A stretch of DNA of 32,000 bases from Halomonas sp. GFAJ-1 (GTDB lineage Bacteria > Pseudomonadota > Gammaproteobacteria > Pseudomonadales > Halomonadaceae). Shown here one piece after another: positions 13,275 through 32,000 of the stretch. A model generated the notes under the pieces. It saw nothing but the letters and a program-made list of their open reading frames with translations. It did no database searches and was not told the origin of the DNA. Positions within the stretch are counted from its first letter, which is position 1, and the number at the start of each line of letters is the position of its first letter. The stretch is from NCBI GenBank assembly GCA_002966495.1, contig CP016490.1, positions 2,590,454 through 2,622,453 on the forward strand, written 5' to 3'. The position numbers and the translations under genes were made by a program.

Positions 13275-13294
13275 GCGGTCCTGCGCCGCCGAAC

Positions 13295-13365
13295 AACAAA
13301 CTGTACCTGACGTCTCCGCCTCCGCTGTGCTATGGCGGAGCCGCAGGTGAGCTTGAGCGTTAAAT
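13295..13365 (+). repeat. attC-like recombination site (71 nt)
   Basis: AACAAAC..ACCTG-ACGT-CTCCGCC - loop - GGCGGAG-CCGC-AGGT..GCGTTAAAT. The terminal GTTAAAT fits GTTRRRY exactly. Confidence 0.7.
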
Positions 13366-13403
13366 TCTATAAACCCACAGATCAGAAAGAGTTGGATATC
13401 CGT

Positions 13404-14429: not shown

Positions 14430-14435
14430 GGTGAT

Positions 14436-14494
14436 ATTTAACAAGTTACGGAAGGCGGACGCGTAAGATGTGCCCCTTCGTTTTGGCGTTATAT
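14436..14494 (+). repeat. attC-like recombination site (59 nt), last of the array
   Basis: ATTTAAC (exact RYYYAAC) -AAGTT-ACG-GAAGG-CGGAC ... GTGCCCCTTC-GT-TTTGGC-GTTATAT. Imperfect palindrome. Confidence 0.6.
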
Positions 14495-14767
14495 CAGGCA
14501 AAGCTGAAAGGCCGCTCCTGGCCGATAGTTGACGTTGAAAAGCTGTTTGTTGGTGCCAAAATCTAAAATTTGCTTGTTTTGAAAGAAGTAAGCACGTGTA
14601 GCGACCTATGAGCAGGTTAGAGAGAGTTTCGGCACACAGTTTGTATATTTCCTAGTAGTGTTCAAAAGCTGTAGGAACGAACAAGGAACGCTAGCGAGCT
14701 AAGCGGTAGATCAGAGAAATGTTTTCGCTGAGATGTGTAGTGAATTGTCCATGAGTAACGTCCATCA

Positions 14768-15289
14768 ATGAGAGCGCCGTTATCGCTACCCCAGCTATGG
14801 GAAAGCACCAAATACGTATCTTGGCCACAAAGCCACAGTAACCCCATTGTGCGTGTGCCGCGCCCATCGGGGAAACCCGAAACCAAGTCGATTTCCCGCT
14901 TAGCCAATGAGTACGACACCTTTGAGCGGTGCATTGCTTATCGAGACCAGCGGGGCAGAGAGGTTTGGGGCGCACGTCGTTGGAAAGAGCTGTTGTTAGT
15001 AGATGCACGCTCCGTCGCGCGTCATCGTGAAGAGCCGGCAGGCCCGATCACGGGCGTTTACCACTACGAACGCCCCACTGGAACAACACTCTGGGTTGCC
15101 GCCTGGTATGAGCTGATGCCCGACGGCTCACGCAAAAAACGCAGTGCGCAGTTCAGTTACGGTACGTCACGCACTCGCTATGCGACCTCAGAAGAGGCGA
15201 TGCAGGCGGCGATTAAACGGCGGCAAGAGGAAGAAGCACGCTGGTACTGTGTAGTGGGTCAACGTGATCAACGGCGCGTGAATCAATGA
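14768..15289 (+). CDS. AP2-like DNA-binding domain protein
   Basis: [14 protein letters not shown] followed by [29 protein letters not shown]...[12 protein letters not shown] resembles bacterial AP2/integrase-type DNA-binding proteins. The true start may be GTG 14849 or 14855. Confidence 0.55.
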
Positions 15290-15317
15290 TGTAAAATCCC
15301 ATCTTCAAGGAGTTCCA

Positions 15318-16541
15318 ATGGCTTTTCGCTTCCAGCGCCGCATTTCCCTTGCGCCCGGCGTGCGATTGAATATCAGCAAGCGTGGCGTGGGGCTCTCTGT
15401 CGGCCCACGCGGTGCGAGTGTGAGCATGGGGCCACGAGGTGCGCATGCACATGCCGGACTTCCTGGGACAGGGCTGGCCTATCGAACGAAGATTTCCCGT
15501 TCTTCCCAGGCCTCACGACAAAGGCAGTTGGGAACATCCTCGACCCATGCAACGCTGGAAGAGCGCATCAGGCAAGGCGAGTCGCTGGGGCTACGGCTAT
15601 CGGTTAATCAAGACGGCAACGTCCGCTACCTATTTGAAGATGGCTCCCCCCTCAACGACAAGGACGTGCGCTGGCTACGTCGCCATGCAAACGACGATAT
15701 CCGTGCACAGCTCAAAACACTCTGCGATGAATTAAACGCGGATATTATTCGCCTAGGCCGGCTGCACCTCGATACACTTTCCCCTCAATCCCGTGGCTAC
15801 GCACCACGCCATTTTGCTGAGCGTCCACCTAAACCGCCTAAGTCTGTGTCTCTTCCATGGTGGAAAGCGCTGTGGCCATCGGTACGCCGTCAACATGAGG
15901 CCGATAACGCACGTCATCAGGCCCAGTTTAATGATGACTACCGTGCCTGGGAGCATCGCAAAGCCGATTTTGAGGCTGCTGAGTTTGCTCGGCAGCAGCG
16001 CGAAGAGCAGGGCGTGTTCAGACAACGTGATGATATGACACTCACGCTTCAGGAACGCCTGGAGGAGATCGACTGGCCCCGGGAGACGGTGATTGACTTT
16101 GATCTAGGCAGCGACGACACCACGATAGCACTGGATATTGACCTGCCATCTGACGATGAGATGCCGGATCGAGAATGGACGATGCCTGCTAAGGCACTCA
16201 AGCTTACCCCAAAATCGCTCAGTGCCACACGACAACGGACGCTATACCGCGACCATGTGGATGGCATTACCTTTCGTGTTCTGGGGGCCGTATTTGTGCG
16301 GTTGCCGCACGTTCAAGAAGCGCGAGTGTCTGGGTATCGACAGGTCGTTGATCCCGCCACCGGCGGTACGCGGGATCAGTACCTTTACAGCATCAAGGTC
16401 ACCCGAGAACAGTGGAACCGTATTCACTTCGATCAGTTGGAACAGGTCGACCCGGTGGCGGCAGTAGAAGCGTTTACGCTGCGTCGTGACATGACCAAAA
16501 CAGGCATTTTTCGAGATATTGAGCCGTTTAAGCTCATCTAA
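15318..16541 (+). CDS. DUF4236-like protein (407 aa)
   Basis: The N-terminus [41 protein letters not shown] is the DUF4236 signature. GGAG lies upstream of the ATG. Confidence 0.65.
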
Positions 16542-16762
16542 TTTCTAGCTTAGGCATAAGCCCAAGGCTTTTGTGTTGTTTGACCAGGTGTGCTCATTCG
16601 ATGGTAGTGACAACGGTTAGGCGTGAGCGGCGCTGACATTACAGCCTTTGATCATTGAGAAGGCGCGATGAGCTTTATAGGCCAATATTTTTTAGAAAAA
16701 TTTATGCTTTATGGTGGATAGCTGCTATACGTTTGATAAGGATATCTTAGCAGGTGGTTGCC

Positions 16763-18001
16763 ATGAAATTGCTTGTCCGCCCAAGACCGTTCATTAACGA
16801 GTCACTTGAGAGCTACATGCTCCGTCTATCGCAAGAAAATTTCTTCGAATACTATCAGCAGCTTAGTCGAGCGATAAAAGACTGGCTGCAACTGCATGAT
16901 CATGAAGCGGCAGGGGCGTTCCCAGAAGAGTTGAGCCGTTTGAATGTTTATCACGCGGCTCAGAGTAGTAGTCGACGCATCAGGGCGCTCAAGCTAGTGG
17001 AGTCGCTAACAGATAATGAAAAACTTCCGCTACTGCACTTGGCAGTCATGCATTCCAGCGAGAAATTTTGTTCACGCTACAGTAGCGTGTTTTATGCAGG
17101 TAGCCATGTACCCCGAGCGTTAGTTCGCCAAAAGGGGATACCTGTCTGCCCTGATTGCCTCACTGAAGCCAACTACATTCGGCAAGAATGGCACTGGATG
17201 CCCTACGAAGCTTGTATTAATCATGGCAAACAGATGTTACATGAGTGTCCAAAATGCGAAGAGAAATTAAATTACACCCATTCTGAATGTTTGCATACTT
17301 GCCGCTGCGGATTTGATCTTCGAAATGCTGACACGGAGCCAGCAGACGAATGGCAGCTTATCGCTAGCCGCCTCGTAGTAGGTGAGCCTTCGCCTTCAAA
17401 CCACCCTCTACTCGACATCCGTTCAGTCAGTTTGCGCCTAGCATGTCTGTTGTGGTACCAGCTGTATGCATATAAAACGTTAGATGCTAGTAATCAGGTT
17501 CCCACTCTTACGATTGAGCGGGCTATCGAGTATTTCACGCATTGGCCTGAAGTGTTTACACAGGAACTAGAGCAGCAAGCGGCGCTTTCAGGCGAGAAAT
17601 TAGTATGTGATTATAATAAAACCTCATTTCGTGATGTTTTTGGCAACATTGTCGGCATTTCGCGTCTGCTGTTGAAGGCTTATCCAGAAAGCGATTTCGT
17701 CTTGACGCCATTGGAGAATTTTTTAGCACGATTGGTTGATCAGAATCCGCAATCACGTGTGCCAAACGTCGCAGATCTGCTCATCAGTATGCCGGAAGCC
17801 GCGATTTTGCTTGGCACGTCGTATGAGCAAGCATACCGTCTATATGAAGAAGGGTATCTCAAATGCGCGGTCAAATTTAAATCACATGAAAAGCTAGTGA
17901 ACGGTATAGGAGTATTTTACTTAAGAGAAATCATGGAGTTGCGTCAGTCACGAATACCGGTTGAGGCAAGCAGCTATAATAATTATTTACCAGCGTGGTA
18001 A
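16763..18001 (+). CDS. tniQ: TniQ family transposition/targeting protein
   Basis: N-terminal PRPFINESLESYMLRLSQEN. Cys clusters CPDC and CPKC..C.C form a likely zinc ribbon. AGGTGG lies 5 nt upstream of ATG 16763. The stop is 4 nt before the next gene. Confidence 0.8.
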   Translation: MKLLVRPRPFINESLESYMLRLSQENFFEYYQQLSRAIKDWLQLHDHEAAGAFPEELSRLNVYHAAQSSSRRIRALKLVESLTDNEKLPLLHLAVMHSSEKFCSRYSSVFYAGSHVPRALVRQKGIPVCPDCLTEANYIRQEWHWMPYEACINHGKQMLHECPKCEEKLNYTHSECLHTCRCGFDLRNADTEPADEWQLIASRLVVGEPSPSNHPLLDIRSVSLRLACLLWYQLYAYKTLDASNQVPTLTIERAIEYFTHWPEVFTQELEQQAALSGEKLVCDYNKTSFRDVFGNIVGISRLLLKAYPESDFVLTPLENFLARLVDQNPQSRVPNVADLLISMPEAAILLGTSYEQAYRLYEEGYLKCAVKFKSHEKLVNGIGVFYLREIMELRQSRIPVEASSYNNYLPAW

Positions 18002-18005
18002 CGTC

Positions 18006-20066
18006 ATGTCGTTAAGTACGTTGTTGGAATTGGATGAGCCAAACCGCTCAGAAGCAATTCGTAAAGCTTTCGCTCCCTACACGCAGCCGCTAGAGGTTTC
18101 TGAAGATGTTAACGCTGCTATTCTGGTGTTGCTTAACTTATCGCATAAGCGTCAAGACGCTCCCGATTTGTTGAATAAAAAAAGAGCAATTGAAACACTC
18201 AAAGATTGGCAGTATATCGAAAGTTGTGCTCAAGAAGTACAGTGGCTGCACTCACATAATCTAAAGCATCCTGATACACGTGTCGCACATCAGAGATTGT
18301 TAGTAAAAGCTGAGAAGCCCTCGGACAGTATTGTTTCTTCATATAATAGCGTGAGTCGTTTGGGCTGGTCACACAACTCAGCAGCTGTGAATAAAGCAAA
18401 GCTTTTTGGAGCTAATTTTATATTTAAGGGTGTAGTTTACTGTTTGGCCGCTATTTTTTTAGATAATAACAAGCAATGGCGGAAAGAATTCATGAATCTT
18501 GGTATGTCTGATGGTCAATGGACTTACCTTCAGTCGCTTTTTGATAATTATTTCACTAAAAATTTATCACCCTCTTATGTGGAAAGGCATTCGGTGCAAG
18601 TTACCTTTCTTTATCAAGGAAAGGATGTCAGTATTACACCTGTCACATCACATTCATTACTGGCCGACATTCAAATTGCTCGGCGTAATAAATGTGGAGA
18701 TTTTGCAACAATAAAACATTGGCACTCTTCAAGTGTTGGAGATTTAGCATCCTCGCTTGGAGGTAATATCTCTGCTCTTAGTTATCCCCCTCGACTATTA
18801 GCCTGTAGCCAAAATAAAGAAAATGAAAATTCTTCTGGAGTCTTTTTTGTAGACTTCCATCACAGTTCTTTAAGAAGCAAATCGTTTATCCTGGCATGTA
18901 CTGAAATTGTTGAAAGTAAAAGCTTGTTGACCGGAAAGAAGAGGCGAGATCATAGGCGTTCTGCTATTAAGTTGCTGAGGCAGTCTTTATCTGAATGGCT
19001 ATCCCCAGTTAGCTATTGGCGAAATGTAGGAGGAGAAGCGCTTTCAGAACGGCAGAACAATTCAGCATGCCTTTTGATTTCTGCTCCTGACGAGGATTTA
19101 CTTGAAATCCTACCTGAGATTAATAAAGAATTACACAGTATTTTGGTGAGGTATCCCCAAACGCAAAGCTTTGCTTATCATCCAGAGCTATTAATTCCTT
19201 TCAAGGCTCAGCTTAAGTCCTTATTGATTGGGATGAAAATAAAAGAAGACGAAGCTATGGCTGAAGAGCCATATTATTACCTTCACTTAAAAAACCTACA
19301 TGTATTCGATGCACAGGCGTTATCTTGTCCCTATCTAGTGGGTTTGCCTTCACTGCTGGCAGTATGGGGAACCGTCTATAACTACCAGCTACGTTTACGA
19401 AGCATCCTTAAACGGAACATTGCCTTTGAAGGAGTTGCTTGGTTTTTGCGGCAGTATGAGTCCTCCTCGGGTGCCAAGATACCTGCCCCGTATCTGGCAC
19501 CAACGAAGCCAGGTGAGGCTCCCAAGCGGCCAGGTCTTATTGATATGCGCTTTTGCGATTTACGCATGGATTTAGTTATTCGCTATCGACTAGAGGATGG
19601 GCACGATACCCCGCTTGGAAATGACGAATTGCCTATGCTGCAGTCTGCACTCCCCGGGAGGTTCGCTGGGGGGACTATGCAGCCTCCGCCACTTTATGAA
19701 GCCTTACAGTGGTGCCAACTACATGGAGATGCGAACAGTTTATTGGCAGCCATATCGCTTCTGCCGGACGAGGGTCGTTGGGTTGTCGACTCAGAAAAAC
19801 AGGTGCAAAGCATCGACAGCTTGGTGGCATGGTTGTCCAAGCATCCCCATCATTTACCTGCTATGAGTGGCTATCAGTTGTTTGAAGAACCTTGCTATCG
19901 GTCTGGTTCACACAGGGAGCTCCATGCTTATGCTGAGCCTTTGGTAGGTCTAACAGAGACGTTGTCACCGGCAAGCGTCAGGCTCAATGGTAAAGCTGAC
20001 TTTCTTAAAAACGCTTTTTGGAGGTTGAAAAGCCAGAACCTTACTATGCTGATGAAAAAAGCATAG
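18006..20066 (+). CDS. cas8: Cas8f/Cas5f-fusion-like large Cascade subunit (type I-F3 'Cas8')
   Basis: Its 686-aa size and its position between tniQ and cas7 match I-F3 CAST operons. I could not verify an independent motif by eye. Confidence 0.7.
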   Translation: MSLSTLLELDEPNRSEAIRKAFAPYTQPLEVSEDVNAAILVLLNLSHKRQDAPDLLNKKRAIETLKDWQYIESCAQEVQWLHSHNLKHPDTRVAHQRLLVKAEKPSDSIVSSYNSVSRLGWSHNSAAVNKAKLFGANFIFKGVVYCLAAIFLDNNKQWRKEFMNLGMSDGQWTYLQSLFDNYFTKNLSPSYVERHSVQVTFLYQGKDVSITPVTSHSLLADIQIARRNKCGDFATIKHWHSSSVGDLASSLGGNISALSYPPRLLACSQNKENENSSGVFFVDFHHSSLRSKSFILACTEIVESKSLLTGKKRRDHRRSAIKLLRQSLSEWLSPVSYWRNVGGEALSERQNNSACLLISAPDEDLLEILPEINKELHSILVRYPQTQSFAYHPELLIPFKAQLKSLLIGMKIKEDEAMAEEPYYYLHLKNLHVFDAQALSCPYLVGLPSLLAVWGTVYNYQLRLRSILKRNIAFEGVAWFLRQYESSSGAKIPAPYLAPTKPGEAPKRPGLIDMRFCDLRMDLVIRYRLEDGHDTPLGNDELPMLQSALPGRFAGGTMQPPPLYEALQWCQLHGDANSLLAAISLLPDEGRWVVDSEKQVQSIDSLVAWLSKHPHHLPAMSGYQLFEEPCYRSGSHRELHAYAEPLVGLTETLSPASVRLNGKADFLKNAFWRLKSQNLTMLMKKA

Positions 20067-20076
20067 GCAGGTCGGC

Positions 20077-21126
20077 ATGATGAACTCTTTCAGGCATCTT
20101 AGCTATGAGCGCTCTCTCAATCCGGGTAAGGCGGTTTTTTATTACCGGACAGATTCGAGCGAATTTGAGCCGTTGCAAGCGGAAGTGACGCGGTTTCGTG
20201 GCCCCAAGGCAACGTTTAGCGATGGCTATATGGCATCCGGGACTGCGCGTGCTAAAGAAACGAGCGATTTGGGCTTTTCTAATCCTATAATGCTCGAAAC
20301 GTGTTATGTACCACCGCTAGTCGATACGTTGTATTGTCGTTTTTCTTTACGCATCATTGCAAACAGCTTAGAGCCAAATATCTGTGATAATGCAGAAGCG
20401 ACAAAAGCATTAAAAGAATTCTCTGATACTTATAGAAACTTGGGCGGATACCAAGAGCTAGCAACTCGATATGCTAAAAATATTCTTTCAGCTGAATGGC
20501 TTTGGAAAAATAAAGTTGCAAGAGGGATAGCTGTGGAGGTTTCTACGTCTAATTTAAAAAACTATTGTATTAAAGATGCACAGTATAAAGAGTGGGGATC
20601 CTCTTGGGAAGGAGATGAGCTTAAATCATTAGAAGGGCTTGCAGTTGAGTTTGAAGAGGCACTTTCTTGCCCACAAAAATTTCTTTTTGCTGATGTAGCT
20701 GCCAAAATAAAAACAGAATTTTGCCAAGAAATTTTCCCCAGTCAATTATTTGTTGAGAAAGATGATAGAGGCAACGGAAGTGCGTCTAGGCAGTTTATGA
20801 AAAGCACGATGAACGATGGTCGTCAAGCAGTTAGCTTTGGTGCTTATAAAGTCGGAGCAGCAATTCAAAAAATTGATGACTGGTGGCTAGATGAAGGGGC
20901 TGAATACCCTTTGAGAGTGAGTGAATACGGTGCAGATCGTAGTCGGGTTTTAGCTATGCGTGAACCAGTTACGAAGAAAGATTTTTACTCGCTGTTAAAC
21001 GAAATTACAAATATCACGGAGGAAATGATTAAAACCAGGCAGGCCAGCCCTAATGCACACTACGTGATGTCAGTGCTAGTGAAGGGGGGGATGTTCCAAA
21101 AAGGAATAAAGAAGGGTGAAAAATGA
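20077..21126 (+). CDS. cas7: Cas7f-like Cascade backbone subunit
   Basis: Blocks LSYERSL, ELATRYAKNILSAEWLWKNK, GAYKVGAAIQKIDDWW, KDFYSLL and VKGGMFQKG match what I recall of I-F/I-F3 Cas7. Confidence 0.8.
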   Translation: MMNSFRHLSYERSLNPGKAVFYYRTDSSEFEPLQAEVTRFRGPKATFSDGYMASGTARAKETSDLGFSNPIMLETCYVPPLVDTLYCRFSLRIIANSLEPNICDNAEATKALKEFSDTYRNLGGYQELATRYAKNILSAEWLWKNKVARGIAVEVSTSNLKNYCIKDAQYKEWGSSWEGDELKSLEGLAVEFEEALSCPQKFLFADVAAKIKTEFCQEIFPSQLFVEKDDRGNGSASRQFMKSTMNDGRQAVSFGAYKVGAAIQKIDDWWLDEGAEYPLRVSEYGADRSRVLAMREPVTKKDFYSLLNEITNITEEMIKTRQASPNAHYVMSVLVKGGMFQKGIKKGEK

Positions 21127-21731
21127 GATACTTTTTTTGCATAAAATATCTAATGCCTTCAGGCAATCACGCATTTTTAGCAGGGAGGTGTATTGCTTGC
21201 TTACATGGGTTTATAAGCGGCCCTAAAATAACGAATTCCGGCATTGGTGTTTCGTTTCCATCATGGGCTACGGGCACAGTTGGTGATTCAATCGCTTTCG
21301 TGAGTAAAGATATTAATGCTTTGTCTTATTTATCATCAGCGCGCTGTTTTAAGAATATGGCGGACGAAGGGTTTATTGACGTTAGTGATATTAAAATGGT
21401 TCCAGAGAAATTAGAAGAAGTTAGGTTTATTAGAAATCAGCATATTGCTAAATCTTTTCCGGGAGAAATTAAGAGACGGCTCATCCGCAGCAAAAACCGG
21501 GCTGAAAAACGTGGCGAGACGTTCATGCCTAGCAGTGCCGTATCAGATCGCTTCGTTGATCAATGCCACGTAATTCCAATTGATAGCCGATCGTCAGGCC
21601 AGCGCTTCCCACTGTATGTGCAGCTTGAAGCACTTGGCGAAGAAAGCAAGTATAATAACTACAATAGTTACGGGCTTGCTACACAGTATACATACTCGGG
21701 TTCGGTGCCAAACCTTAAGCAGATTACCTAA
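21123..21731 (+). CDS. cas6: Cas6f-like crRNA endoribonuclease
   Basis: ATGA overlap with the cas7 stop. Blocks GIGVSFPSW, basic RRLIRSKNRAEKRGE and C-terminal SYGL. The leader and array follow. Confidence 0.75.
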   Translation: MRYFFCIKYLMPSGNHAFLAGRCIACLHGFISGPKITNSGIGVSFPSWATGTVGDSIAFVSKDINALSYLSSARCFKNMADEGFIDVSDIKMVPEKLEEVRFIRNQHIAKSFPGEIKRRLIRSKNRAEKRGETFMPSSAVSDRFVDQCHVIPIDSRSSGQRFPLYVQLEALGEESKYNNYNSYGLATQYTYSGSVPNLKQIT

Positions 21732-21854: not shown

Positions 21855-22002
21855 GTGAACCGCCGAATAGGCAGCTGAAAAAAGCACGTAGAGGAAGCAA
21901 GGGCAGAGGTGCCCGTGAACCGCCGAATAGGCAGCTGAAAAATGATTGAACGGTGCGCATATGCATCTGAGTGCGTGAACCGCCGAATAGGCAGCTGATA
22001 TT
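21855..22002 (+). CRISPR. CRISPR array: three 28-nt I-F-like repeats, two 32-nt spacers
   Basis: Repeats GTGAACCGCCGAATAGGCAGCTGAAAAA at 21855 and 21915, and a variant ...GCTGATATT at 21975. This matches the canonical I-F repeat GTTCACTGCCGTATAGGCAGCTAAGAAA at 22/28 positions. Spacers are at 21883-21914 and 21943-21974. An AT-rich leader spans 21732-21854. A possible degenerate fourth repeat lies at 22031-22057. Confidence 0.9.
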
Positions 22003-22060
22003 AGGACTGGAAGCCAGCAACGGTAATGATACACACCGCCGCAAGGCAGCAATGGTTCTA

Positions 22061-22092
22061 AACCCTCCAAGATTTCTTGGAGGGTTTTTTTT
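22061..22092 (+). terminator. rho-independent terminator after the array
   Basis: AACCCTCCAAG-attt-CTTGGAGGGTT followed by T8. Confidence 0.7.
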
Positions 22093-22230
22093 ATAGGGTC
22101 GGATAGTACCCAGTGCACATGAGGACGAGCGTATTGCCTGACATGCCATTGATTTAATGAACTCTTATAAATCAAGCGCTGCATTTCGTTAGCAGTCAAA
22201 TATTGGTCAGTCGTTGCGGGCGCACTTTCG

Positions 22231-22264
22231 TACACCTAAACTACAAATATATAGTTTAGGTGTA
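22231..22264. promoter_or_regulatory. 12-bp perfect inverted repeat, candidate operator of the AbiEi-like gene
   Basis: TACACCTAAACT-acaaatatat-AGTTTAGGTGTA, ending 5 nt before ATG 22270. Confidence 0.5.
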
Positions 22265-22269
22265 TACTT

Positions 22270-22809
22270 ATGAATCAGATGACAGCTCGGCAGCGACTGG
22301 ATGATTGGGATAAAATCGGGAGAAATATATTTACACTGAGTGACTTAGCAAAGATCTTTCATGAAGATAAACCAAAAACCCTTCAGGAAGGAATCAACCG
22401 ATTGCGTAAGCACGGGATACTCGAAGGCGTTACCCGAGGTATCTATTGCTATGCTCATTCGCGCACTCCCGACACCTATCGGCTGGAGAAAATCGCTCGT
22501 GCTATGCGCCGTGGCGAGTACAGCTACGTGTCACTGGAGTCCGCCCTTTCAGAGTATGGGGCCATCTCACAAATCCCGGTCGATCGTCTAACAATTATGA
22601 CAACGGGACGCAAAGGAACGCACCGCACCCCTTATGGAACTATTGAGTTCACTCATACGAGTAGACGCATCATTGAGCTGCTGCCGCGCATGCTTGATAT
22701 TGGGCGGCCGCTCAAGATGGCGACCCTTGATGCTGCCTGGGCAGATCTCAAACGTGTGGGGCGAAATACGTATTTAGTAGATGTAGAGGTGATTCATGGT
22801 CAGGGGTGA
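22270..22809 (+). CDS. AbiEi-like antitoxin/transcriptional regulator (wHTH N-terminal domain)
   Basis: TLSDLAKIF...LQEGINRLRKHGILEGVTRGIYCY followed by YVSLESALSEYG resembles AbiEi family antitoxins. Confidence 0.6.
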   Translation: MNQMTARQRLDDWDKIGRNIFTLSDLAKIFHEDKPKTLQEGINRLRKHGILEGVTRGIYCYAHSRTPDTYRLEKIARAMRRGEYSYVSLESALSEYGAISQIPVDRLTIMTTGRKGTHRTPYGTIEFTHTSRRIIELLPRMLDIGRPLKMATLDAAWADLKRVGRNTYLVDVEVIHGQG

Positions 22810-22967
22810 GCCTGAGGATTTTGCCAAGCTAGTTGATAATGAGCATGAACCTTACATTTGAATCGGTACGAGGCCAAACCGAGCCATTTGCAGCGTCGGT
22901 TGGCGAAAAAGCAGAAAGGCTTACCTTATCGGGAAAAGGGGGCCTATGTTTATTGCGTAAACATTGA
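22796..22967 (+). pseudogene. possible decayed AbiEii-type toxin remnant
   Basis: An ATG overlaps the AbiEi stop and gives ..EPEDFAKLVDN.. then a stop. A shifted frame gives ..LSGKGGLCLL.., similar to the FKGGT motif. The match is weak and fragmentary. Confidence 0.25.
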
Positions 22968-23160
22968 CCCCCAAAAACACATCCCTATGCCAAATTTGAA
23001 GAGAATATGAACATGGCGTGGGGCCTGATCAGCCATATAACCAGTGACCCTTTTGAGACATTCAAAGCCTGAATTCAACGAAAGGCATTGGGTATCCCAT
23101 CTTAGCGGAATGCTCAGCAGTTTTGATCCTGTGCTGCGGCCAAGAGCTGTTTATCATGAT

Positions 23161-23311
23161 GTTTTTTTATAACGTCATTTTGCTACCGAAGCAAACGATC
23201 GTTTTACTTTATGTCATTTAAAAGTGGAAAACTTATGTCATTTTGCGGTGGAATTCTTGGTGTAAGTGACTGTTTTTTCGTATTGGTTATGTCAAGTTGA
23301 AGTGGAAACGA
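23161..23311 (+). mobile_element. Tn7-like transposon end (tnsA-proximal) with terminal TGT and four direct TnsB-type repeats
   Basis: TGTTTTTTTAT terminus at 23161. Repeats are ACGTCATTTTGCTACCGAAG (23173), ATGTCATTTAAAAGTGGAAAAC (23212), ATGTCATTTTGCGGTGGAATTC (23236) and ATGTCAAGTTGAAGTGGAAACG (23290). tnsA begins 97 bp further in. Confidence 0.7.
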
Positions 23312-23407
23312 CAATTTCTTGTCGTTTTCAATACTAGTTGGCATAATTCTCAAATAACTGGCATGAGCTACCTTTTATATAATTAAACTACATAAAAGGG
23401 TGGAGCC

Positions 23408-24027
23408 ATGTACCGCCGCAAGCTCCGTCACTCCCGCGTCAAAAATCTCTATGAGTTCGCTAGTGCCAAGAACGGCAATGTCCTAACCGTCGAATCGACT
23501 TTGGAATTCGATGCCTGCTTTCACTTTGAATATTCGAATGATATTCAGTCTTTTGAAGCCCAGCCTATAGGGTTTCACTACAACTACGAAGCCAAAACCC
23601 TCCCCTATACCCCAGATTTTCGTTTAATTAATGTGTCAGGCGTTGCTACTTTCGTCGAAATCAAGCCTGCTAGCTTTTTTTAAAACCTGAAATTATGCAA
23701 CGTTTTGCCGCTAAAAGAGATGCTGCTAAAAGTCAAGGTTTCAACTTGATACTAGTGTCTGACCGCCAAATACATGTAAACCCACTTTTGTATAACCTAA
23801 AGTTACTGCATAGATATTCAGGCTTATCGCTAATCAATGATTTCCATCACTCTATTTTGAAGATAATAGAGAAATTTCGAAAAGTAAAAGTGGGTTATTT
23901 GTTAGAAAGAATATCAGCTGAAGAGGGCTCGATAATGCGTGCGATTATAAGCCTCCTTCAGTTACGCTTGGTTAAAGCAAATTTTACCATTGAAAAAATT
24001 GGCAGAAATACAACTATATGGTGCTGA
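23408..24027 (+). pseudogene. tnsA: tnsA (Tn7-type endonuclease) split by a frameshift in a T7 run
   Basis: The N-terminal fragment carries TnsA catalytic-type motifs (STLEFD, YTPDF, VEIKP). The C-terminal fragment is in another frame. Adding one T at 23675-23681 fuses them (..ASFFLKPEIMQRF..). No tnsB follows. Confidence 0.7.
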
Positions 24028-24030
24028 TGA

Positions 24031-24951
24031 CTTCGTAAAGTGTCATGGTTGCAGTCACCTCGCCAAGATGAGCTCATTGTTCGCATAGAAACTAGCCGTC
24101 TATTGAGTGAAATAGATATTCGACTAATCGAGCTTTTTTGTTGAATATTGCGGTAGGCTTCGATAATGCTCAGTTGTTTGAGAAAACAGAGTTCCTTGCT
24201 TACCATGATCCTTTAACATGTTTACCTAATCGGCGATCTCTGCTTGAAACAATGGAGCGTTTGATTAAACGTGACACGGCTTTTTCAGTCTTAATAATAG
24301 ATATTGATAATTTTCAGTCTATCAACGATGGCTTAGGTTATCGGATAGGTGATGCGTTACTTAAAAAGGTAGCCGCCTTGTTTCGACATCACTTTGACTC
24401 AGCGGTGCTACTGTCGAGAGCAGCAAAAATGGCTGAAGGCGACGGGCAATGCGTTGACCGTTGCTGTGAATGTGTCGGTTCGCCAGCTTTCTGGGTCGCA
24501 CTTTCTTACCACGGTAGATAATGTGCTGCGAACAACAGGTATCAGTCCCCAGCATTTAGAGTTAGAAATCACAGAAAGCATGATGATAGAAGATGCCCAG
24601 CATATCCATCAGCTGATTGCACAGATCCGCACCCGAGGTATTAAAGTAGCGTTGGATGACTTTGGGACAGGCTACTCATCATTAAGCTCTTTGCAGCAGC
24701 TACCCATAGATAAATTGAAAATTGATCGCTCGTTTGTCTTCGGTGTGGATAGTAAAGAAGAAGATCGCTTGCTCGTCGAAATGATTATTAACCTAGGCAA
24801 ACTGTTGGGCTATACCGTTATTGCGGAAGGTGTTGAAACAATTGAACAACAGCATGTTTTACAGTCTCTAGGGTGCGATATGGTGCAAGGCTATTACTAC
24901 TCTCGGCCTTTAGGAGGCGATGCGTGGCAGGCGTATTTGCTTGCGCATTAG
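24031..24951 (+). pseudogene. decayed GAF?-GGDEF-EAL signalling gene (N-terminally truncated, frameshifted, internal deletion)
   Basis: The GGDEF start is present (AYHDPLTCLPNRR..IIDIDNFQSINDGLGYRIGD) but the GGDEF motif itself is missing. The sequence jumps into mid-EAL (VAVNVSVRQL, ELEITES, DDFGTGYSS, KIDRSF, EGVE). There is a frameshift at the T6 run 24134-24139. Confidence 0.7.
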
Positions 24952-25066
24952 CACTATGGCCGTGTGAACCTGTTGTCGCAATGTGACAGTAGCTGCCACA
25001 GAGGCTTGCCACTTCGCGCTTGCGCGCTGCAACATCAGCAGAGGTGGCGCGGCGTTGGGCTAGCCG

Positions 25067-25537
25067 CTAGCGTTGCTTTTTTATGAGCGCTTGCATAATG
25101 GCAAGTGTTTCATCGCTGACATGGTGTTCCATGCCCTCTGCGTCAATGCGTGCCGTGCTGTCGGTGACGCCTAACGCGCGTAAAAAATGTAGCACAATAT
25201 CATGCCGTGTCCGTGATGTTTTCGCCATCTGTTCGCCTGTTTCAGTAAGAAACAGAGAGCGATAGGGTTTGTTGGTCACTAGGCCCAGGTCATTCAAACG
25301 CCGAATCATCTTAGACACCGTGGCTTGGCTAACCGCCATGCGCGTAGCGATATCTGCTGCTCTTGCCTCTCCCCGATGCTTTATTAGGTCACCAATAAGT
25401 TCAACATAGTCCTCGATCAGTTCTGTCTCATGTGCATTGCGCACTGCTTCATATTGCCGGGCGTGCTGCTCCACTGGAGGGAGTGCATCGCCGCTAAGAT
25501 CTGCGGAAGGGGGGTGTCGTTGTGTGTGATCACTCAT
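25067..25537 (-). CDS. DtxR/MntR-family metal-dependent transcriptional regulator
   Basis: LIEDYVELIGDLI..GEARAADIATRMAVSQATVSKMIRRL..GLV...YRSLFLTETG. Divergent from a metal ABC operon. Confidence 0.8.
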   Translation of the reverse strand: MSDHTQRHPPSADLSGDALPPVEQHARQYEAVRNAHETELIEDYVELIGDLIKHRGEARAADIATRMAVSQATVSKMIRRLNDLGLVTNKPYRSLFLTETGEQMAKTSRTRHDIVLHFLRALGVTDSTARIDAEGMEHHVSDETLAIMQALIKKQR

Positions 25538-25604
25538 TGAAAAATACTATTAAGGTTAATGGAAACGTTAATTGGTGATGGTAGCGTATTTTTGAGGATA
25601 ATTG

Positions 25605-25618
25605 TTAGCCAAGGCTAA
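25605..25618. promoter_or_regulatory. palindrome TTAGCC-aa-GGCTAA, candidate DtxR/MntR operator
   Basis: Perfect 6-2-6 inverted repeat in the divergent intergenic region between the regulator and the ABC operon. Confidence 0.4.
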
Positions 25619-25689
25619 ACTGTTTGCATAAAGCTTTTTTAATGCGCTACAGTAATTAACATCGAATACTATCACAATGGAGAAAGCCG

Positions 25690-26604
25690 ATGAGCAAGTT
25701 ACATGTAGGGGTGTTGCTTGGGGCATCATTAGCCTGGGGAACCGCGAATGCTGAGGTAGCTGATCTGTATGAGGCGCCCATCAATGTGGCTGTGACGTTC
25801 TCTGTACTAGGTGACCTCGTTAAGCAAGTGGCAGGGGATGACGCTCATGTCTCCGTGCTGACCCCGGTGAATGCTGAAGTTCATGAGTGGGAGTTAACGC
25901 CGGATAATTTTGCCGCGCTTGAAGAGGCGGACTTGGTTTTTTATAACGGTTATCAGCTTGAGCAGTGGATGCGACAAGTCGAAGCGACGGTTAGCGATAA
26001 TGTGCCCATTATCGCCGTGGCAGAAGCTTCCGACTACCCAACGCAGTCAATCATCACTGGTGAAATGGAAGGTGACGTTGATCCCCATCTTTGGATGGAT
26101 CCCCGTGCTGCTGCGGCTTATGTAAATGTTATCGCAAGCTCAATGGGAGAATTACTTCCCCACCAGGCTGAGGCCATTCTAGAGCGTGCACTCTCTTTAG
26201 AAGAGCAGCTACACGATTTGCATGTTGAGCTGCAAGAGACGCTTGAGGCTATTCCTGATGAGCATCGGCTGCTGCTGTCCAGCGAAGCGGCGTTTCTCTA
26301 CTTTGCAGACGCCTACAACTTTGACCACGATGGCATTTGGGGCACTAACGCTGAAACCGAAGGGTCTCCCAGGCAGTTAATGCGCATAATTGATATTATA
26401 GAAGAGCGCCAGCCACCCGCTCTATTCTGGGAGAGCACCATTTCAGATCGTCACGTCACCAGCATTGCACGCGATACCGGGGTGCAAGTTGCTGGCCCCC
26501 TTTATGTCGACTCCCTGAGTGAGCCAACGGGTGAAGCTGCTGATTACTTCGCGATGCTACGCCATAATGCTGCGCTGCTACGCCACTATTTAGCTGCCGA
26601 GTAA
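25690..26604 (+). CDS. metal (Mn/Zn/Fe) ABC transporter substrate-binding protein, TroA/ZnuA-like
   Basis: Signal peptide. Motifs HEWELTP, DLVFYNG and DPHLWMDP are typical of cluster A-I metal-binding proteins. Confidence 0.8.
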   Translation: MSKLHVGVLLGASLAWGTANAEVADLYEAPINVAVTFSVLGDLVKQVAGDDAHVSVLTPVNAEVHEWELTPDNFAALEEADLVFYNGYQLEQWMRQVEATVSDNVPIIAVAEASDYPTQSIITGEMEGDVDPHLWMDPRAAAAYVNVIASSMGELLPHQAEAILERALSLEEQLHDLHVELQETLEAIPDEHRLLLSSEAAFLYFADAYNFDHDGIWGTNAETEGSPRQLMRIIDIIEERQPPALFWESTISDRHVTSIARDTGVQVAGPLYVDSLSEPTGEAADYFAMLRHNAALLRHYLAAE

Positions 26605-27435
26605 ATGTTTATGACGCCCCCGCTTGATCCTGCTGCAGCGGCGATTGATATTACGGCCCTGTATGCCGCCTACCATCGCCAGCCAGTGCTGGAAAACATT
26701 AACCTTTCGTTTCCAGCTGGGAAATGGACGGCGATTGTGGGGCCGAATGGGGCAGGAAAATCGACGCTGTTCCACGTGCTTACGGGCAGTATGAAACCGC
26801 TGCGTGGCCGCGTGGATGCATTTGGTGAGCCCATTGCCATTCAACGAAAGGCGGGGAATATCGCTTACATGGCCCAGCGAGAAGCGATTGAGTGGGATTT
26901 TCCTATTTCGGTATGGGAAACCGTGATGGGCGGCCGTTACGGGCATATGCGTCGCGATGCTCTTTGGCGGCGGCTGCTTCCTGCACGTTGGTATGCGCCT
27001 AGCCATCAGCAAGTAGTTCGCAAGGCATTAGAAGATGTTGATATGTTGGCATTGGCTGATCAGCCTATCGGAGCGCTTTCAGGTGGGCAAAAAAAGCGGG
27101 TGCTGTTAGCCCGCACCTTGGCTCAGCAGGCAAAAATCCTGCTACTAGATGAGCCGCTGGCAGGCGTAGATCCCCCTAGCGAGCAGCTTATTTTGAATGT
27201 TTTAAAGCGTGAGCGGGAAGCAGGCCGTACGGTTGTGATGGTGACCCATGATATGCCCGGTGCGCGCCGCTATGTCGATCATGTTGTGTTGATTAACCGG
27301 ATTGTGCGCGGTGTGGGTTCACCCGAAGAGATGCTGAGTGATGCTAGATTAGCTGAGTTGGCGGTTAGTTCAATTGAGCAATCGAGTAACGATCAAGCGC
27401 TTCGTCCCACTGCTTGCTCAGCCGCGCAGGAATAA
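26605..27435 (+). CDS. metal ABC transporter ATP-binding protein
   Basis: Walker A GPNGAGKST, signature LSGGQKKR, Walker B LLLDEP. Confidence 0.85.
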   Translation: MFMTPPLDPAAAAIDITALYAAYHRQPVLENINLSFPAGKWTAIVGPNGAGKSTLFHVLTGSMKPLRGRVDAFGEPIAIQRKAGNIAYMAQREAIEWDFPISVWETVMGGRYGHMRRDALWRRLLPARWYAPSHQQVVRKALEDVDMLALADQPIGALSGGQKKRVLLARTLAQQAKILLLDEPLAGVDPPSEQLILNVLKREREAGRTVVMVTHDMPGARRYVDHVVLINRIVRGVGSPEEMLSDARLAELAVSSIEQSSNDQALRPTACSAAQE

Positions 27436-27438
27436 GGC

Positions 27439-28377
27439 ATGATCGAGATATTACTAACCTTAGAGACCTTTAGCGATGCGTTGGTAAGTGGTCTAATTGC
27501 TGCACTGATGCTCTTGGTCAATCTACTTCCCGAGAGTATATCGAAAGCGTTTCAATACGCGTTCATGCAGCGGGCGCTGCTGACCTCTATTATGGTGGGT
27601 GCCATTTGCGGGATGCTCTCTTGCTATGTGGTGCTCAAACGCTGGTCGTTGCTAGGCGATGCAATTTCCCACGCCGTTTTACCTGGTGTTGCTATAGCGT
27701 ACCTATTGGGGCTGCCTTTTTTTATTGGTGCCTTTGTCACAGGGGCTTTAACATCGCTAGGTATCGGTGCGATTGAGCGCCACACGCGAATAAAATCTGA
27801 TGCGGCGATGGGCATTATGTTTACGGGTGCATTTGCCCTGGGCATTGTGCTGATTAGTAAGATCGCATCGAGCACCCACTTAATGCATATCCTGTTCGGG
27901 AATGTGCTCGGCGTGCAGCAGTCTGCGCTGTTATTAACACTAGCCGCCAGCGTAGTGGCGTTAATCGTTGTGTGGCTCGCCTTTAGGCCGTTAATGCTGT
28001 ACGCATTTGACCCTACTCAAGCCCAGGCCCTTGGCTTTAATACCGGCATCATTCATTACGGTTTGATACTGTTGCTGACGTTGACCATTGTAGCGAGTCT
28101 GGAAACCGTTGGGATTATCCTTGTTGTTGCGATGCTGATTACGCCGGGTGCCACCGCCCATCTTCTAACAGACCGCTTTAAAACCATGCTGCTACTTTCG
28201 ATGGGCGTAGGGGTGGGGTCGGCAGTGCTGGGCTTATACCTCTCGTTCGCGTTTGATGTAGCGTCTGGCGGCACTATCGTACTGGTGGCAACCAGCTGTT
28301 TCTTTATGGCGCTACTCTTTTCACCCAAGCACGGTGTGCTCATGCGGAAGTGGCGCCATCGCCAAGTGGATGTTTAG
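27439..28377 (+). CDS. metal ABC transporter permease (ABC-3 family)
   Basis: Polytopic membrane protein with a DAISHAVLPG motif. Third gene of the operon. Confidence 0.8.
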   Translation: MIEILLTLETFSDALVSGLIAALMLLVNLLPESISKAFQYAFMQRALLTSIMVGAICGMLSCYVVLKRWSLLGDAISHAVLPGVAIAYLLGLPFFIGAFVTGALTSLGIGAIERHTRIKSDAAMGIMFTGAFALGIVLISKIASSTHLMHILFGNVLGVQQSALLLTLAASVVALIVVWLAFRPLMLYAFDPTQAQALGFNTGIIHYGLILLLTLTIVASLETVGIILVVAMLITPGATAHLLTDRFKTMLLLSMGVGVGSAVLGLYLSFAFDVASGGTIVLVATSCFFMALLFSPKHGVLMRKWRHRQVDV

Positions 28378-28407
28378 TACTTAGCCTGAGCTGCTTTACG
28401 CCTGGGC

Positions 28408-28854
28408 TTAAGGGTGAGTGGTTTGACTCGCTGATAACCAATCGAGTATCAGGTGGTGATAATCAACGATGCCAATGACGTGATGATTGGTATCTACCAC
28501 TGGGGCTAGCGATAATCCAAACTGTTCAAATAAGCGCGCGCAGTAGCGTATGTTCATCTCTGGACGCACGCTAACCACAGGCTTTGTCATTATTTCATAT
28601 AAATTGACACGCTCGGGTGGACGGCTTGGGGAAAGTACTTTTTTAGCGATGTCCGACGGTAAAACAATGCCGAGTTCGTCTTGTTCGTTGCGCCGATTGA
28701 TAATAATCACCGAGGCTTGGCGCTGGCGTAGCAGTGCCAAACCCTCGGCAACGGTTACGAAGCCATCAACCGCAATAAATCGACTATGCATCGCATCGCG
28801 CGCAGTGCGCTCAGTTAGGGAGGGCATGGCTAGGGAAGACGTTTCAGTTGCCAT
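28408..28854 (-). CDS. CBS-domain pair protein
   Basis: 148 aa with two CBS-like repeats (VTVAEGL...GIV; VVSVRPEM...IGIVD). Confidence 0.65.
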   Translation of the reverse strand: MATETSSLAMPSLTERTARDAMHSRFIAVDGFVTVAEGLALLRQRQASVIIINRRNEQDELGIVLPSDIAKKVLSPSRPPERVNLYEIMTKPVVSVRPEMNIRYCARLFEQFGLSLAPVVDTNHHVIGIVDYHHLILDWLSASQTTHP

Positions 28855-28871
28855 TGTAAATTCCTTACGCG

Positions 28872-29222
28872 TTATAAAGGCTGAGTTAACGACTTTGACA
28901 GTGATTTGATTTGATGCTTAACGCCAACGGCATCTTCAACATCGATTTGAAACGCAATGCCGGTGCCCGGCGTTTCATCAAATTCGCCAACCCGTTGAAT
29001 AGCTTCCAATATATGTCGACTGATATGCTCTTCGGCTAAAAAAAGCAGCACATCTCGCTGGGCAGTTATCTCCATACCAAAAATGCCCCGCGCTTTTTTC
29101 AGCCCTTCGCCTCGGGCATTGTTGATCACGGTAGCACCTGTAGCGCCAGCGTCACGGGCGGCCTGCAGAATATTGTCGCTTAATTCATCTTCAACCATCG
29201 CTACAATCAATTTAAAGCGCAT
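28872..29222 (-). CDS. P-II-like signalling protein
   Basis: The N-terminus [32 protein letters not shown] and its ~116-aa size fit the P-II fold. It overlaps the upstream DUF1538 gene. Confidence 0.65.
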   Translation of the reverse strand: MRFKLIVAMVEDELSDNILQAARDAGATGATVINNARGEGLKKARGIFGMEITAQRDVLLFLAEEHISRHILEAIQRVGEFDETPGTGIAFQIDVEDAVGVKHQIKSLSKSLTQPL

Positions 29223-30024
29223 TGCTGTCTCCTTTACTTTCTTGAGTGCTATTCCCTGGCGTATTTGCGGCAGGCCGTTTTCTGTTGTCTTGCCATTGGG
29301 CTATCTGGGCATAGCCCATTACCGTAATGATAGGGAATAAGCAGGCAAGAGCGATCATCCCAAAGCCGTCCATTAACGCGCTACGGCCCGGGATTGATGA
29401 GGCTAACCCCAGCCCAAGCGCCGCGATAATAGGCACAGTAATGGTCGATGTGGTAACACCGCCTGAGTCAAATGCAAGCGGTATAATAGAGCGTGGTGAG
29501 CGAAGTGTTTGCAGGATCACCAAGCAGTAAGCCACCAGCACGAACCATTGTAGCGGCCAGCCCATGACAATTCGCCAGGCACCCAAGGTAATACCAAACG
29601 CCATGCCTAGAGCCACAGCAATGCGTAACATTAATGGATTGATAGTTCCGCCTGATATTTCACCTGCTTTAATGGAAACAGCAATGAGCGATGGTTCTGC
29701 AATCGTTGTGCTGGCACCGATCGCAAACGCGAATAGATAGACCCAGTAGTAATCGCTCCAGTGGCGCTGGGCGCCCTCTGCAACAGCAGGTAGGAAGCTA
29801 GCCTCGGTTAACTGACTTGCCATTAACTCACCCATGGGGAAAAGCGCTTGTTCTAACCCCACCAAAAAAAGCGATAGCCCTACCCAGACCATTAGAAAGC
29901 CTGCTAGTACCTGGGGAAGGCGCTTAACGGGTTTACGAATAACAAGATACTGAAAGCCAAAGATAATGGCAGCTATCGGCAAAATATCGCGCAGTGTTTC
30001 CCAAAACGTAAGGAGTAAACTCAT
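29212..30024 (-). CDS. DUF1538-like integral membrane protein
   Basis: Polytopic. Paralogous to the next gene, sharing [15 protein letters not shown] and DGFG motifs. Confidence 0.7.
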
Positions 30025-30785
30025 GAGGCGCCTTCCATAAAGCTCAAGCCAAAAATGCCAAATAGCAGTACAAAAATAATTGGCATCACCGAAGCAAAGG
30101 CGATAAGACCAAAGCCGTCAAGCATTGGGTTTCGCCCCTTAATTGAGGATGCCAAACCTACGCCTAGCGCGGTCACTAACGGTACGGTAATAGTAGACGT
30201 CGTAACGCCACCGGAGTCATAGGCGATACCTACTAGTTCGCTGGGTGCCACTAGCGTTAGCAGCATCACAATGACATAGCCCGCTATAATCATCAGGTGC
30301 AGTGGCCAGCCTTTAAAAATTCTTAACACCCCCACAACAACGGCTGTTCCCACGGAGGCCGCGACCACCATGCGAAGCGTAAAGGCAAAAGAGGTTTGCG
30401 CGCTGGGTGTATCAGCAATTAAGCCGCTTTGTGACACGACTTCCCCAGCCCGCGCGGCGACTGCAATAAGCGCAGGCTCTGCCACGGTTGAGCCAAAGCC
30501 CAAAGCAAAAGCAAACACCAATAGCCACGCTACGGAGCCTTTTTGCACAAATGCGCGTGCTAAATTTTCACCTAGTGGAAAGAGGCCAAGCTCAAGCCCT
30601 TTGATGAAAAGGGCTAGCCCTACGACAACAAAAACAAGCCCTAAAAAGAGATCAAGTAGCGCTAGCGTGTCGGGCAAGGGCTGCCGAATCACTATCAGCT
30701 GAAAAAAGCCCATGACTAATACGACAGGCGCCAGATCGCGTAGGCTATCTCTCAGTTGGTGTGAGAAAGAGAGTAAGAAATTCAT
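30021..30785 (-). CDS. DUF1538-like integral membrane protein (paralogue)
   Basis: Shares [15 protein letters not shown] and LDGFGLIA. There is a 4-nt overlap with the downstream paralogue. Confidence 0.7.
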
Positions 30786-31005
30786 CAGGGATCCATGAGG
30801 TTTTTGTCTTAAGTAGCGTTATTTAGGTAGTTTACTCAGAGCGTTATGTCGTTGTCTTGATCCTGCTCATGATTAAATCGTGTTGATTGGGTTATTGATA
30901 ACTACAATCTAGTGGGGCAGCAATCGCACAGGGGGGTAACGCGCCGCTTGCCTGGCTCTTTTACGTGCGTCCTCGATACTACATTCCAATGCAGGGAGCC
31001 GGTTA

Positions 31006-32000
31006 ATGTCCGCACATTCCAGCGATGTGATTGAAAATCGTACGTTTGACGAAATAAAAGTGGGTGACAGGGCGTTCTTGGAAAAGCGCTTGACCATGGA
31101 TGATATCAAACTGTTTGCCATTATGTCGGGAGATATCAACCCGTCGCATGTGGACGATGACTACGCGAAAAGAAGCCGTTTTCAAGAAGTGGTCGCCCAC
31201 GGGATGTGGGGCGGTGCGCTTATCTCCACCGTGCTGGGCACTGAGTTGCCTGGGCCAGGCACTATATATTTAGGCCAAACGCTGCGCTTTAGAGCGCCTG
31301 TTCGCTTGGGTGATGTGCTTCATGTGGCGGTTAGGGTAACAAACAAGCAGTCACGTAACCATCACGTAATATTTGCCTGTGAATGTCGAAATCAGCATGG
31401 CGACATTGTGATTGAGGGTGAAGCGGAGGTGCTTGCGCCTACTCAAAAAATCCGTCGCCCCCGGGCAGAGCTTCCGGCCATCCGACTTTCTGAACGTGGG
31501 CGGCTTCATGAAATACTTACCGCCGCCGATCACCCTGACCCATTGCGTATGGCCGTGGTTCATCCTGTGGATGAAAGCTCTATAAGAGGGGCGGTGGAGT
31601 CTGCCGCGCAGCGGTTAATCGTGCCTGTGCTGGTTGGCCCTAGAGCTAAAATTGAGGCAGCGGCAAACGCGGCCGAGGTTGATATTAGCGCGTTCGAGCT
31701 AATCGATACCCCTCATAGCCATGCCGCCGCAGCCAAAGCGGTGGCGTTGGCACAGGATGGCCAAGTAGATGCGCTAATGAAAGGGTCTCTGCCTACTAGC
31801 GAACTCCTTCACGAGGTAGTTAAGCGTGAAGGAGGACTGCGCACCGAGCGCTGCCTGAGCCATGTCATGGCATTTGATGTACCCACTTACCCGCGGCCCT
31901 TATTCATTACCGATGCTGCCATTACTATTTACCCTACCTTGGAACAAAAACGCGACATTATCCAAAATGCGGTAGAGCTCGCCCACACGCTGGGTAACGA
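31006..32000 (+). CDS. bifunctional MaoC-like dehydratase / phosphate acetyl-butyryl transferase, 3' end outside the window
   Basis: My own translation from ATG 31006 stays open to base 32000. The N-terminal hot-dog motif is DINPSHVD..AHGM. It is followed by PTA/PTB-like VVHPVDESS...DALMKGSL. The gene is absent from the ORF track because no stop falls in the window. Confidence 0.75.
   Translation, partial: MSAHSSDVIENRTFDEIKVGDRAFLEKRLTMDDIKLFAIMSGDINPSHVDDDYAKRSRFQEVVAHGMWGGALISTVLGTELPGPGTIYLGQTLRFRAPVRLGDVLHVAVRVTNKQSRNHHVIFACECRNQHGDIVIEGEAEVLAPTQKIRRPRAELPAIRLSERGRLHEILTAADHPDPLRMAVVHPVDESSIRGAVESAAQRLIVPVLVGPRAKIEAAANAAEVDISAFELIDTPHSHAAAAKAVALAQDGQVDALMKGSLPTSELLHEVVKREGGLRTERCLSHVMAFDVPTYPRPLFITDAAITIYPTLEQKRDIIQNAVELAHTLGN

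Follow-up and report, generated by a model that had tools for sequence, protein, structure and literature searches.

Two Tn7-like elements probably stacked at ffs in a Halomonadaceae chromosome: a CAST left end beside the remnant of an older element

The interval at 23161-24027 of the window (the whole 32,000-nt stretch of contig CP016490.1 from Halomonas sp. GFAJ-1 analysed here) very probably marks where two stacked Tn7-like elements meet, ffs (SRP RNA) of a Halomonadaceae chromosome being their shared attachment site. The repeats at 23161-23313 are identified as the left end of the neighbouring tniQ-cas type I-F3b CAST, oriented toward its cas operon, and the left boundary of this CAST is now fixed at 23313. 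A few base pairs away begins what is left of an older element, namely its right end and a tnsA pseudogene. A preliminary description of this DNA had recognized a second Tn7-like trace with tnsA and without tnsB and tnsC, and had suggested a tandem insertion at a hotspot; both suggestions hold, the trace having a right end of its own and the hotspot being ffs.

The terminus pattern TGT[CT]G...N13-17...CAT[AG] was scanned across the 32-kb window, and 23313 (minus strand) and 23320 (plus strand) were the only convincing ends. A third match at 30847 ends in CATG, has no accompanying sites, and is weak enough to be ascribed to chance. An independent repeat finder also paired 23287-23314 with 23319-23346 as an inverted repeat of 79% complementarity.

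The left end occupies 23161..23313 on the minus strand (153 bp). It opens with the 8-bp terminal repeat TGTCGTTT at 23313..23306, followed inward by BS1 CCACTTCAACTTGACATAA at 23305..23287, a 35-bp gap, BS2 CCACCGCAAAATGACATAA at 23251..23233, a 5-bp gap and BS3 CCACTTTTAAATGACATAA at 23227..23209, so that its TnsB-type sites are three 19-bp repeats in the minus-strand reading. Read on the plus strand, the end closes with the terminal repeat as ...AAACGACA (23306-23313), ending in ACA, and the ...GGAAACGACA that ends at 23313 is the reverse complement of TGTCGTTT. A window scan with the consensus ATGTCATTTnnnnGTGGAAA returned three plus-strand matches at no more than 3 mismatches (23211, 23235 and 23289), against 0.44 expected by chance, and at least three were reached in 1 of 100 shuffles. 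Four direct repeats had been described, of which these three stand and the fourth does not: at 23188..23170 on the minus strand it agrees with the best true copy at 13 of 19 positions, is at most a possible, degenerate site, and the weak copy near 23170-23192 is not retained as a site in the relative L044. The conserved block common to the window and L044 begins near 23161.

The right end of the older element lies on the plus strand at 23320..23366. It consists of the terminal repeat TGTCGTTT (23320-23327), an intact BS1 TCAATACTAGTTGGCATAA (23328-23346) and, after a 1-bp spacing, a degenerate BS2 TCTCAAATAACTGGCATGA (..GGCATGA) at 23348-23366, which ends in CATGA. For comparison, 44 loci encoding TnsA relatives were fetched and the sequence upstream of each tnsA was compared. 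In 34 of them the distance from TGT(C/T)G(T/C)TT to the tnsA ATG downstream of it is 90-143 bp, mostly 108-134 bp. These right ends lie mostly directly downstream of ffs (the SRP RNA was confirmed by Rfam in L038 and L073) and usually carry three, sometimes four, close sites, typically ending (T/G)(G/A)CATA(A/G). The terminus at 23320 is located 88 bp before the tnsA ATG, which is one 22-bp site shorter than the closest end, that of L038. Two of the usual three sites are left and BS3 is absent, so three intact sites are not found here. The end that does belong to tnsA, overlooked in the preliminary description, is this shorter one at 23320-23366; with one site missing and one degenerate, it does not look intact.

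Between the last TnsB site and the tnsA ATG, many relatives carry a palindrome, ..TTTTTGTAGTAAnnCTACA.., from which the counterpart at window positions 23371-23399, CCTTTTATATAATTAAACTACATAAAAGG, has diverged. The palindrome may serve as an operator through which tnsA is regulated.

The two ends are separated by ATTTCT at 23314..23319, which we read as a 5-bp duplication, ATTTC, plus one T, the junction being CGACA-ATTTC-T-TGTCG. In relatives the same ATTTCT is the ffs flank. Right ends there are preceded by ffs..CCATTTCT directly before TGTCG in L038, L056, L063 and L068, and by ffs..CCATTTC before TGTCG in L064 and L069, while left ends are flanked by ATTTCT.. in L061, L071 and L072, with TTTCT.. 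and similar flanks also occurring. ATTTC or TTTCT is thereby found at both flank kinds in relatives, and in the window the left-end flank ATTTC alone is visible. An ffs flank would stand between the two ends only if the old right end had at one time adjoined ffs directly.

The same junction could in principle have arisen by recombination or duplication of related elements, or by a tnsA element inserting after the CAST, and junctions between ends of the same site type do exist in L052, L054 and L044, which target immunity should disfavour. We hold such an origin to be improbable, since the two ends in the window are of different site types (..GACATAA versus ..GGCATAA, with 9-13 of 19 positions in common) and the 6 bp between them are the ffs flank; a late insertion of the tnsA element would moreover have found no ffs protospacer within reach once the CAST was in place.

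The element to which the left end is assigned is a resident type I-F3 CAST. Its tniQ-cas8/5-cas7-cas6 operon occupies 16754..21731 on the plus strand (Pfam TniQ, Cas_Csy2, Cas_Csy3 and Cas_Csy4) and is followed on the same strand by a CRISPR array at 21855..22062. The array comprises two typical 28-nt repeats and a third that is altered at its 3' end (..CTGATATT); beyond the last spacer stand a diverged terminal repeat and a terminator hairpin. The last spacer, AGGACTGGAAGCCAGCAACGGTAATGATACAC at 22003-22034, is hence preceded by the repeat with the altered 3' end and followed by the diverged one. No cas1, cas2 or cas3 is present near the operon. The CAST module containing this operon is 78-93% identical in nucleotide sequence to four metagenome contigs (L072, L066, L055 and L060), in all of which tniQ-cas-CRISPR is followed, within about 1 kb of the array, by a left end of the window type. 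Homology of the window to these contigs breaks at 23316-23319 and the flanks beyond differ; because homology stops at the terminus and the flanks are different, the repeats travel with the CAST and not with tnsA. In a further contig, L061, mntR-znuABC and the remaining right-hand synteny of the window begin within about 280 bp of the CAST left end, with neither tnsA nor GGDEF-EAL between the left end and mntR.

Polarity and spacing lead to the same assignment. Inward from the terminus, the sites of relatives read TR-N14-CATAA (34 of 44 relatives, with the polarity fixed by ffs and tnsA), and the window repeats show this polarity on the minus strand only. Their layout of one site, a gap and two sites recurs in the bounded element of L034, a small element delimited by both ends with TCTTC on both sides, and in the junctions of L031, L025 and L029.

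A third element might have supplied the left end at 23161-23313, with the real left end of the CAST lying elsewhere or lost; the right end of the CAST is not in the window, and L044 and L052 have a window-type left end with no tniQ-cas within 10-12 kb. This origin appears quite improbable, as the terminus-pattern scan found no other end-like structure between the CRISPR array (22062) and 23161, and in four relatives no more than about 1 kb lies between array and left end. The contrary assignment, made in the preliminary description, of 23161-23310 to tnsA as an intact-looking, rightward-pointing end starting from TGT at 23161 is hardly credible: the repeats are real, tnsA does follow them on the same strand, the TGT is present and the block conserved in L044 starts near it, but the termini are at 23313 and 23320, the sites run the other way from those of all right ends examined, a full terminal repeat with a site stands at 23320 where relatives have their right end, the one-gap-two layout is a left-end layout, and the block accompanies tniQ-cas in L072, L066, L055 and L060 and occurs in L061 without any tnsA. 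The argument that the end points away from tniQ-cas and cannot belong to the same element was consequently inverted; as the left end of the CAST, it is oriented toward the cas operon. This case shows that a tnsA may lie beside a cas operon and still be part of another element, one that is dead.

The tnsA, tnsB and tnsC genes of the CAST are absent from the 32-kb window, so they and its right end are to be sought beyond the left edge, and no ffs or tRNA was found within the window. Exact look-ups of BrxL, ZnuA and MntR aimed at that right end led to short Logan contigs, 100% identical to the window or belonging to a sister strain, and the upstream one closes with further defence cargo. The nature of the missing end can be gathered from relatives. 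A metagenome scan with the pattern TGTCGTTTCC-N9-TGACATAA returned both end kinds, and cognate-type right ends in it read TGTCGTTTCCGGTCTGTTTTGACATAA ATTCCGG(A/T)TAAAATGACATAA TTTGCGGTTTCTCGTGACATAA. Cognate right ends (TGTCGTTTCCGG..GACATAA, with three sites) stand directly after ffs and ahead of a 207-aa tnsA in L056, L057, L062-L064, L068 and L069. The left-end repeats of the window are of the same site family as these CAST-type right ends (...AAATGACATAA), and the sites of the remnant differ (...TTGGCATAA). The 207-aa TnsA cluster next to cognate right ends is annotated from Vreelandella and Halomonas genomes, its members having been traced to other Halomonadaceae genomes and to metagenomes, and complete genomes with this cluster read opuAC - tRNA - ffs - tnsA - tnsB - tnsC - xre - brxA... 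In L052 and L071 a cognate right end and a window-type left end together bound a single 4.5-kb element, which sits behind another left end across ATTTCT. By this comparison, the window left end would pair with a right end of the ..AAATGACATAA type, the pairing and the ATTTC duplication beside ffs being seen in relatives only. Minimal ends and cargo lists for this CAST family have to be drawn up from the left end of 153 bp and its cognate right end.

The tnsA pseudogene of the older element spans 23408..24027 on the plus strand. Its 91-aa and 110-aa open reading frames are two parts of a single tnsA, divided where one nucleotide has been lost from the T7 run at 23675-23681; the resulting frameshift leads to a stop at 23681-23683. 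The 91-aa frame alone scores 20.4 bits against Pfam TnsA_N (PF08722), below the threshold of 26.5; with one T restored, the 206-aa product passes it at 31.6 bits. The restored protein aligns to the TnsA of PseCAST over residues 1-206 (E 1.6e-43), through the N-terminal nuclease and C-terminal domains, and the catalytic-type E, YTPD and ExK positions are aligned, D71 of PseCAST being the D of YTPD. With the TnsA of L038, which is intact and also 206 aa long, it shares 68% identity. The TnsA homology proposed for the 91-aa and 110-aa products was thereby confirmed, and the gene is, judged by sequence, a true TnsA of the PseCAST family inactivated by a frameshift. The T7 run and stop also occur in the 100%-identical assembly L045. 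In the sister strain L049, tnsA is 91.7% identical, has the same T7 run and premature stop and is cut after the equivalent of 23735. Sequencing error and programmed frameshifting at the T7 run were both considered and rejected on account of this independently assembled and further-truncated copy: the shared run and stop indicate that the frameshift predates the split of the two strains, and hence is neither an assembly error nor a programmed shift.

Loss of the remainder of the element, already proposed in the preliminary description together with the truncated GGDEF-EAL gene directly after tnsA, is borne out by Pfam and by alignment with L049, which was recovered by an exact MntR look-up and whose flanks are 97-98.6% identical to the window. 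From the tnsA stop to the deletion joint there are 26 nt (24028..24053), possibly the tnsA-tnsB junction. Past them, 24054..24951 on the plus strand preserve the 3' part of a DUF3369-GGDEF-EAL gene, which matches Pfam GGDEF over positions 1-78 and EAL over positions 74-236 and whose homology to the intact gene of L049 begins at 24054, about codon 273 of 740, at 97-98.6% identity. The remnant has a frameshift near 24130 and a second, internal deletion of 502 bp at about 24412-24419, between TG(G/T)CGAGA short matches. In L049 the cut in tnsA is followed by 345 bp, an SBP gene, a histidine kinase gene and the intact 740-aa DUF3369-GGDEF-EAL gene adjoining mntR. After the shared frameshift, the window and L049 strains would then have undergone different deletions. 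Neither tnsB nor tnsC was found downstream of the tnsA pseudogene in the window, and a search for end-like patterns in 24028-32000, in the 345 bp upstream of the L049 SBP gene and in the 115 bp between EAL and mntR gave nothing convincing as the left end of the older element. The SBP-kinase-GGDEF-EAL genes are absent from L061 and may be either cargo of the older element or chromosomal.

The first intact chromosomal gene right of the island is mntR (25067..25537, minus strand; Pfam). The right-hand region thus runs from the broken GGDEF-EAL gene through mntR to znuABC-like, CBS, P-II and DUF1538 genes, and pta-ackA lies further right in the 100%-identical contig L045. An empty site was not recovered: Vreelandella venusta and Halomonas sp. 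7T have a glycosyltransferase cluster by mntR, with no ffs nearby.

The most probable history of the site is as follows. First to insert next to ffs would have been an older element akin to the tnsABC-xre element that Vreelandella sedimenti carries at ffs, bringing ...CCATTTCT up against its terminus TGTCGTTT... The type I-F3b CAST would have inserted later between ffs and the older element, one base upstream of the old end and duplicating ATTTC, probably guided by its fixed last spacer. The CAST left end thus came to abut the old right end at 23320-23366 across ATTTC+T. The older element decayed by loss of one TnsB site, by the tnsA frameshift and by a deletion running from just past tnsA into the GGDEF-EAL gene, which took out tnsB, tnsC and everything up to and beyond the old left end; the remnant is presumably inert at present. 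Relatives free of the CAST would be expected to show the state before its arrival, ffs..CCATTTCT followed immediately by TGTCGTTTTCAATAC.., with the remnant directly beside ffs.

The part assigned to the guide is suggested by the array. The last spacer does not vary between the window, L072, L066 and L055 and is almost unchanged in L060, and all other spacers differ. Against the ffs of L038 it agrees at 22 of 32 positions, directly after CC, an agreement that an equally good chance match reaches once in about 1 Mb of loci. The implied protospacer in L038 ends 41 bp from the right-end terminus; for VchCAST this distance is reportedly about 48-50 bp, i.e. longer. A role of the last spacer as an ffs homing guide is consistent with these observations, which do not prove it.

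Several features are shared with characterized systems. I-F3b elements use atypical crRNAs and have ffs and rsmJ listed among their attachment sites (review, PMC11406308). As in type I-F3b ffs-homing CASTs such as Tn6900/AsCAST (PMC11406308), tniQ-cas is located away from tnsABC and near the left end, the array has an atypical repeat and a final spacer that is fixed, and the right ends of relatives lie directly downstream of ffs; unlike in those, the spacer match of the window to ffs is the 22 of 32 positions counted against the ffs of relatives. PseCAST, a type I-F3 element of Pseudoalteromonas with TnsAB structures 30jv/9t7l, has three 19-bp sites in each of its ends, spaced by 2 and 3 bp in the right end and by 36 and 4 bp in the left (PMC13598128). 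The 8-bp terminal repeat and 19-bp TnsB sites are common to PseCAST and the window, the left-end gaps of 35 and 5 bp in the window CAST match those of PseCAST closely, and the right-end sites of PseCAST and the remnant alike are closely spaced. The site sequences differ from those of PseCAST (..GACATAA and ..GGCATAA types), and the remnant has two sites and a frameshifted tnsA.

The closest relative of the remnant is the tnsA-tnsB-tnsC-xre element of Vreelandella sedimenti QX-2 (L038), with a TnsA that is 68% identical and likewise 206 aa long. Like the remnant, it has right-end sites of the ..TTGGCATAA type and the ffs..CCATTTCT flank. It lies directly after ffs and is intact, with three sites, a TnsB of 650 aa (Mu-transposase C and rve), a TnsC of 338 aa (TniB/AAA_22) and an Xre-type regulator, in contrast to the two sites and broken tnsA of the remnant. 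This layout is I-F3b-like, and the older element, with or without cas genes, was probably of that kind.

Tandem Tn7-like elements at attachment sites were reportedly described by Parks and Peters in 2007. Successive occupancy of one site and decay of the older occupant are shared between such tandems and the window; here, in distinction, the site would be chosen by a crRNA and not by TnsD/TniQ alone, and the ends are of different TnsB-site types. Remnants and multiple insertions of Tn7-like elements at attachment sites are also documented for Tn6022/AbaR (PMC11014353). Tn7-like elements are already known to occur in tandem and as remnants at their attachment sites; the window adds one more instance and reveals no new mechanism. 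A description of this exact arrangement, tandem CASTs at ffs, was not found in the literature searched.

Other junctions were noticed among the relatives. At 12594-12653 of L052, 792-851 of L054 and 9595-9656 of L044, a left end is separated by 6-8 bp from a right end that faces it, both being of the ..GACATAA type, and the right end in these junctions keeps all three sites, which is unexpected under strict target immunity. At about 690-780 of L055, a mutated sequence resembling a right end, TGGCTTTTCTAGTCTGTTGTGATATGAATTCCAGCCAAAATGCCATAT, begins 2-3 bp beyond the CAST left end and may be another decayed predecessor.

A broader idea, which we regard as speculative and on balance unlikely, is that ffs of Halomonadaceae holds stacks in which successive I-F3b CASTs insert ahead of their predecessors, immunity either failing against different or site-depleted ends or being intrinsically weak at the homing site. 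The first variant draws on differing TnsB-site types or on the loss of sites, the remnant in the window having kept two of three, and the second on the same-type junctions of L052, L054 and L044. Were the idea true, natural junctions could be read to learn how far orthogonality and immunity extend among CASTs. The junctions of the window, L044, L052/L054, L055, L031, L025 and L029 form a small natural data set on the re-use of ffs and the decay of remnants.

The cargo of the CAST, as far as it extends into the window, is a mosaic of defence genes. BREX genes pglZ and brxL (Pfam) lie at 28-3567; upstream of them, positions 1-9928 of L046 encode a NERD/UvrD helicase, DUF7017, GmrSD, PDDEXK_4 and a kinase, not the usual brxC-pglX. 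Two tyrosine recombinase genes on the minus strand (213 and 211 aa; Phage_integrase) at 5475-6116 and 8246-8881 bracket a 470-aa open reading frame with no Pfam match, and the bracketed region might be an invertible or repeated segment. Coordinate arithmetic, without alignment, would put the start of the Logan contig that covers the right part of the window near 8880. Six consecutive same-strand open reading frames at 10131-16541 (187, 222, 322, 263, 365 and 173 aa), also CAST cargo, have no Pfam match, and the last two are conserved in L072 (87-92% amino acid identity). A 407-aa DUF4236 protein is encoded after this run, just upstream of tniQ.

Between the array and the left end, an intact AbiEi antitoxin-like gene lies at 22270-22809, and no intact partner frame was found downstream of it (22270-23160). 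A perfect 13-bp palindrome is located in its promoter, at 22231-22264. L072, L066 and L055 have other sequence in place of window positions 22091-22984. DNA identical to the window is present in the Logan assemblies of SRR4046668 and SRR385952.
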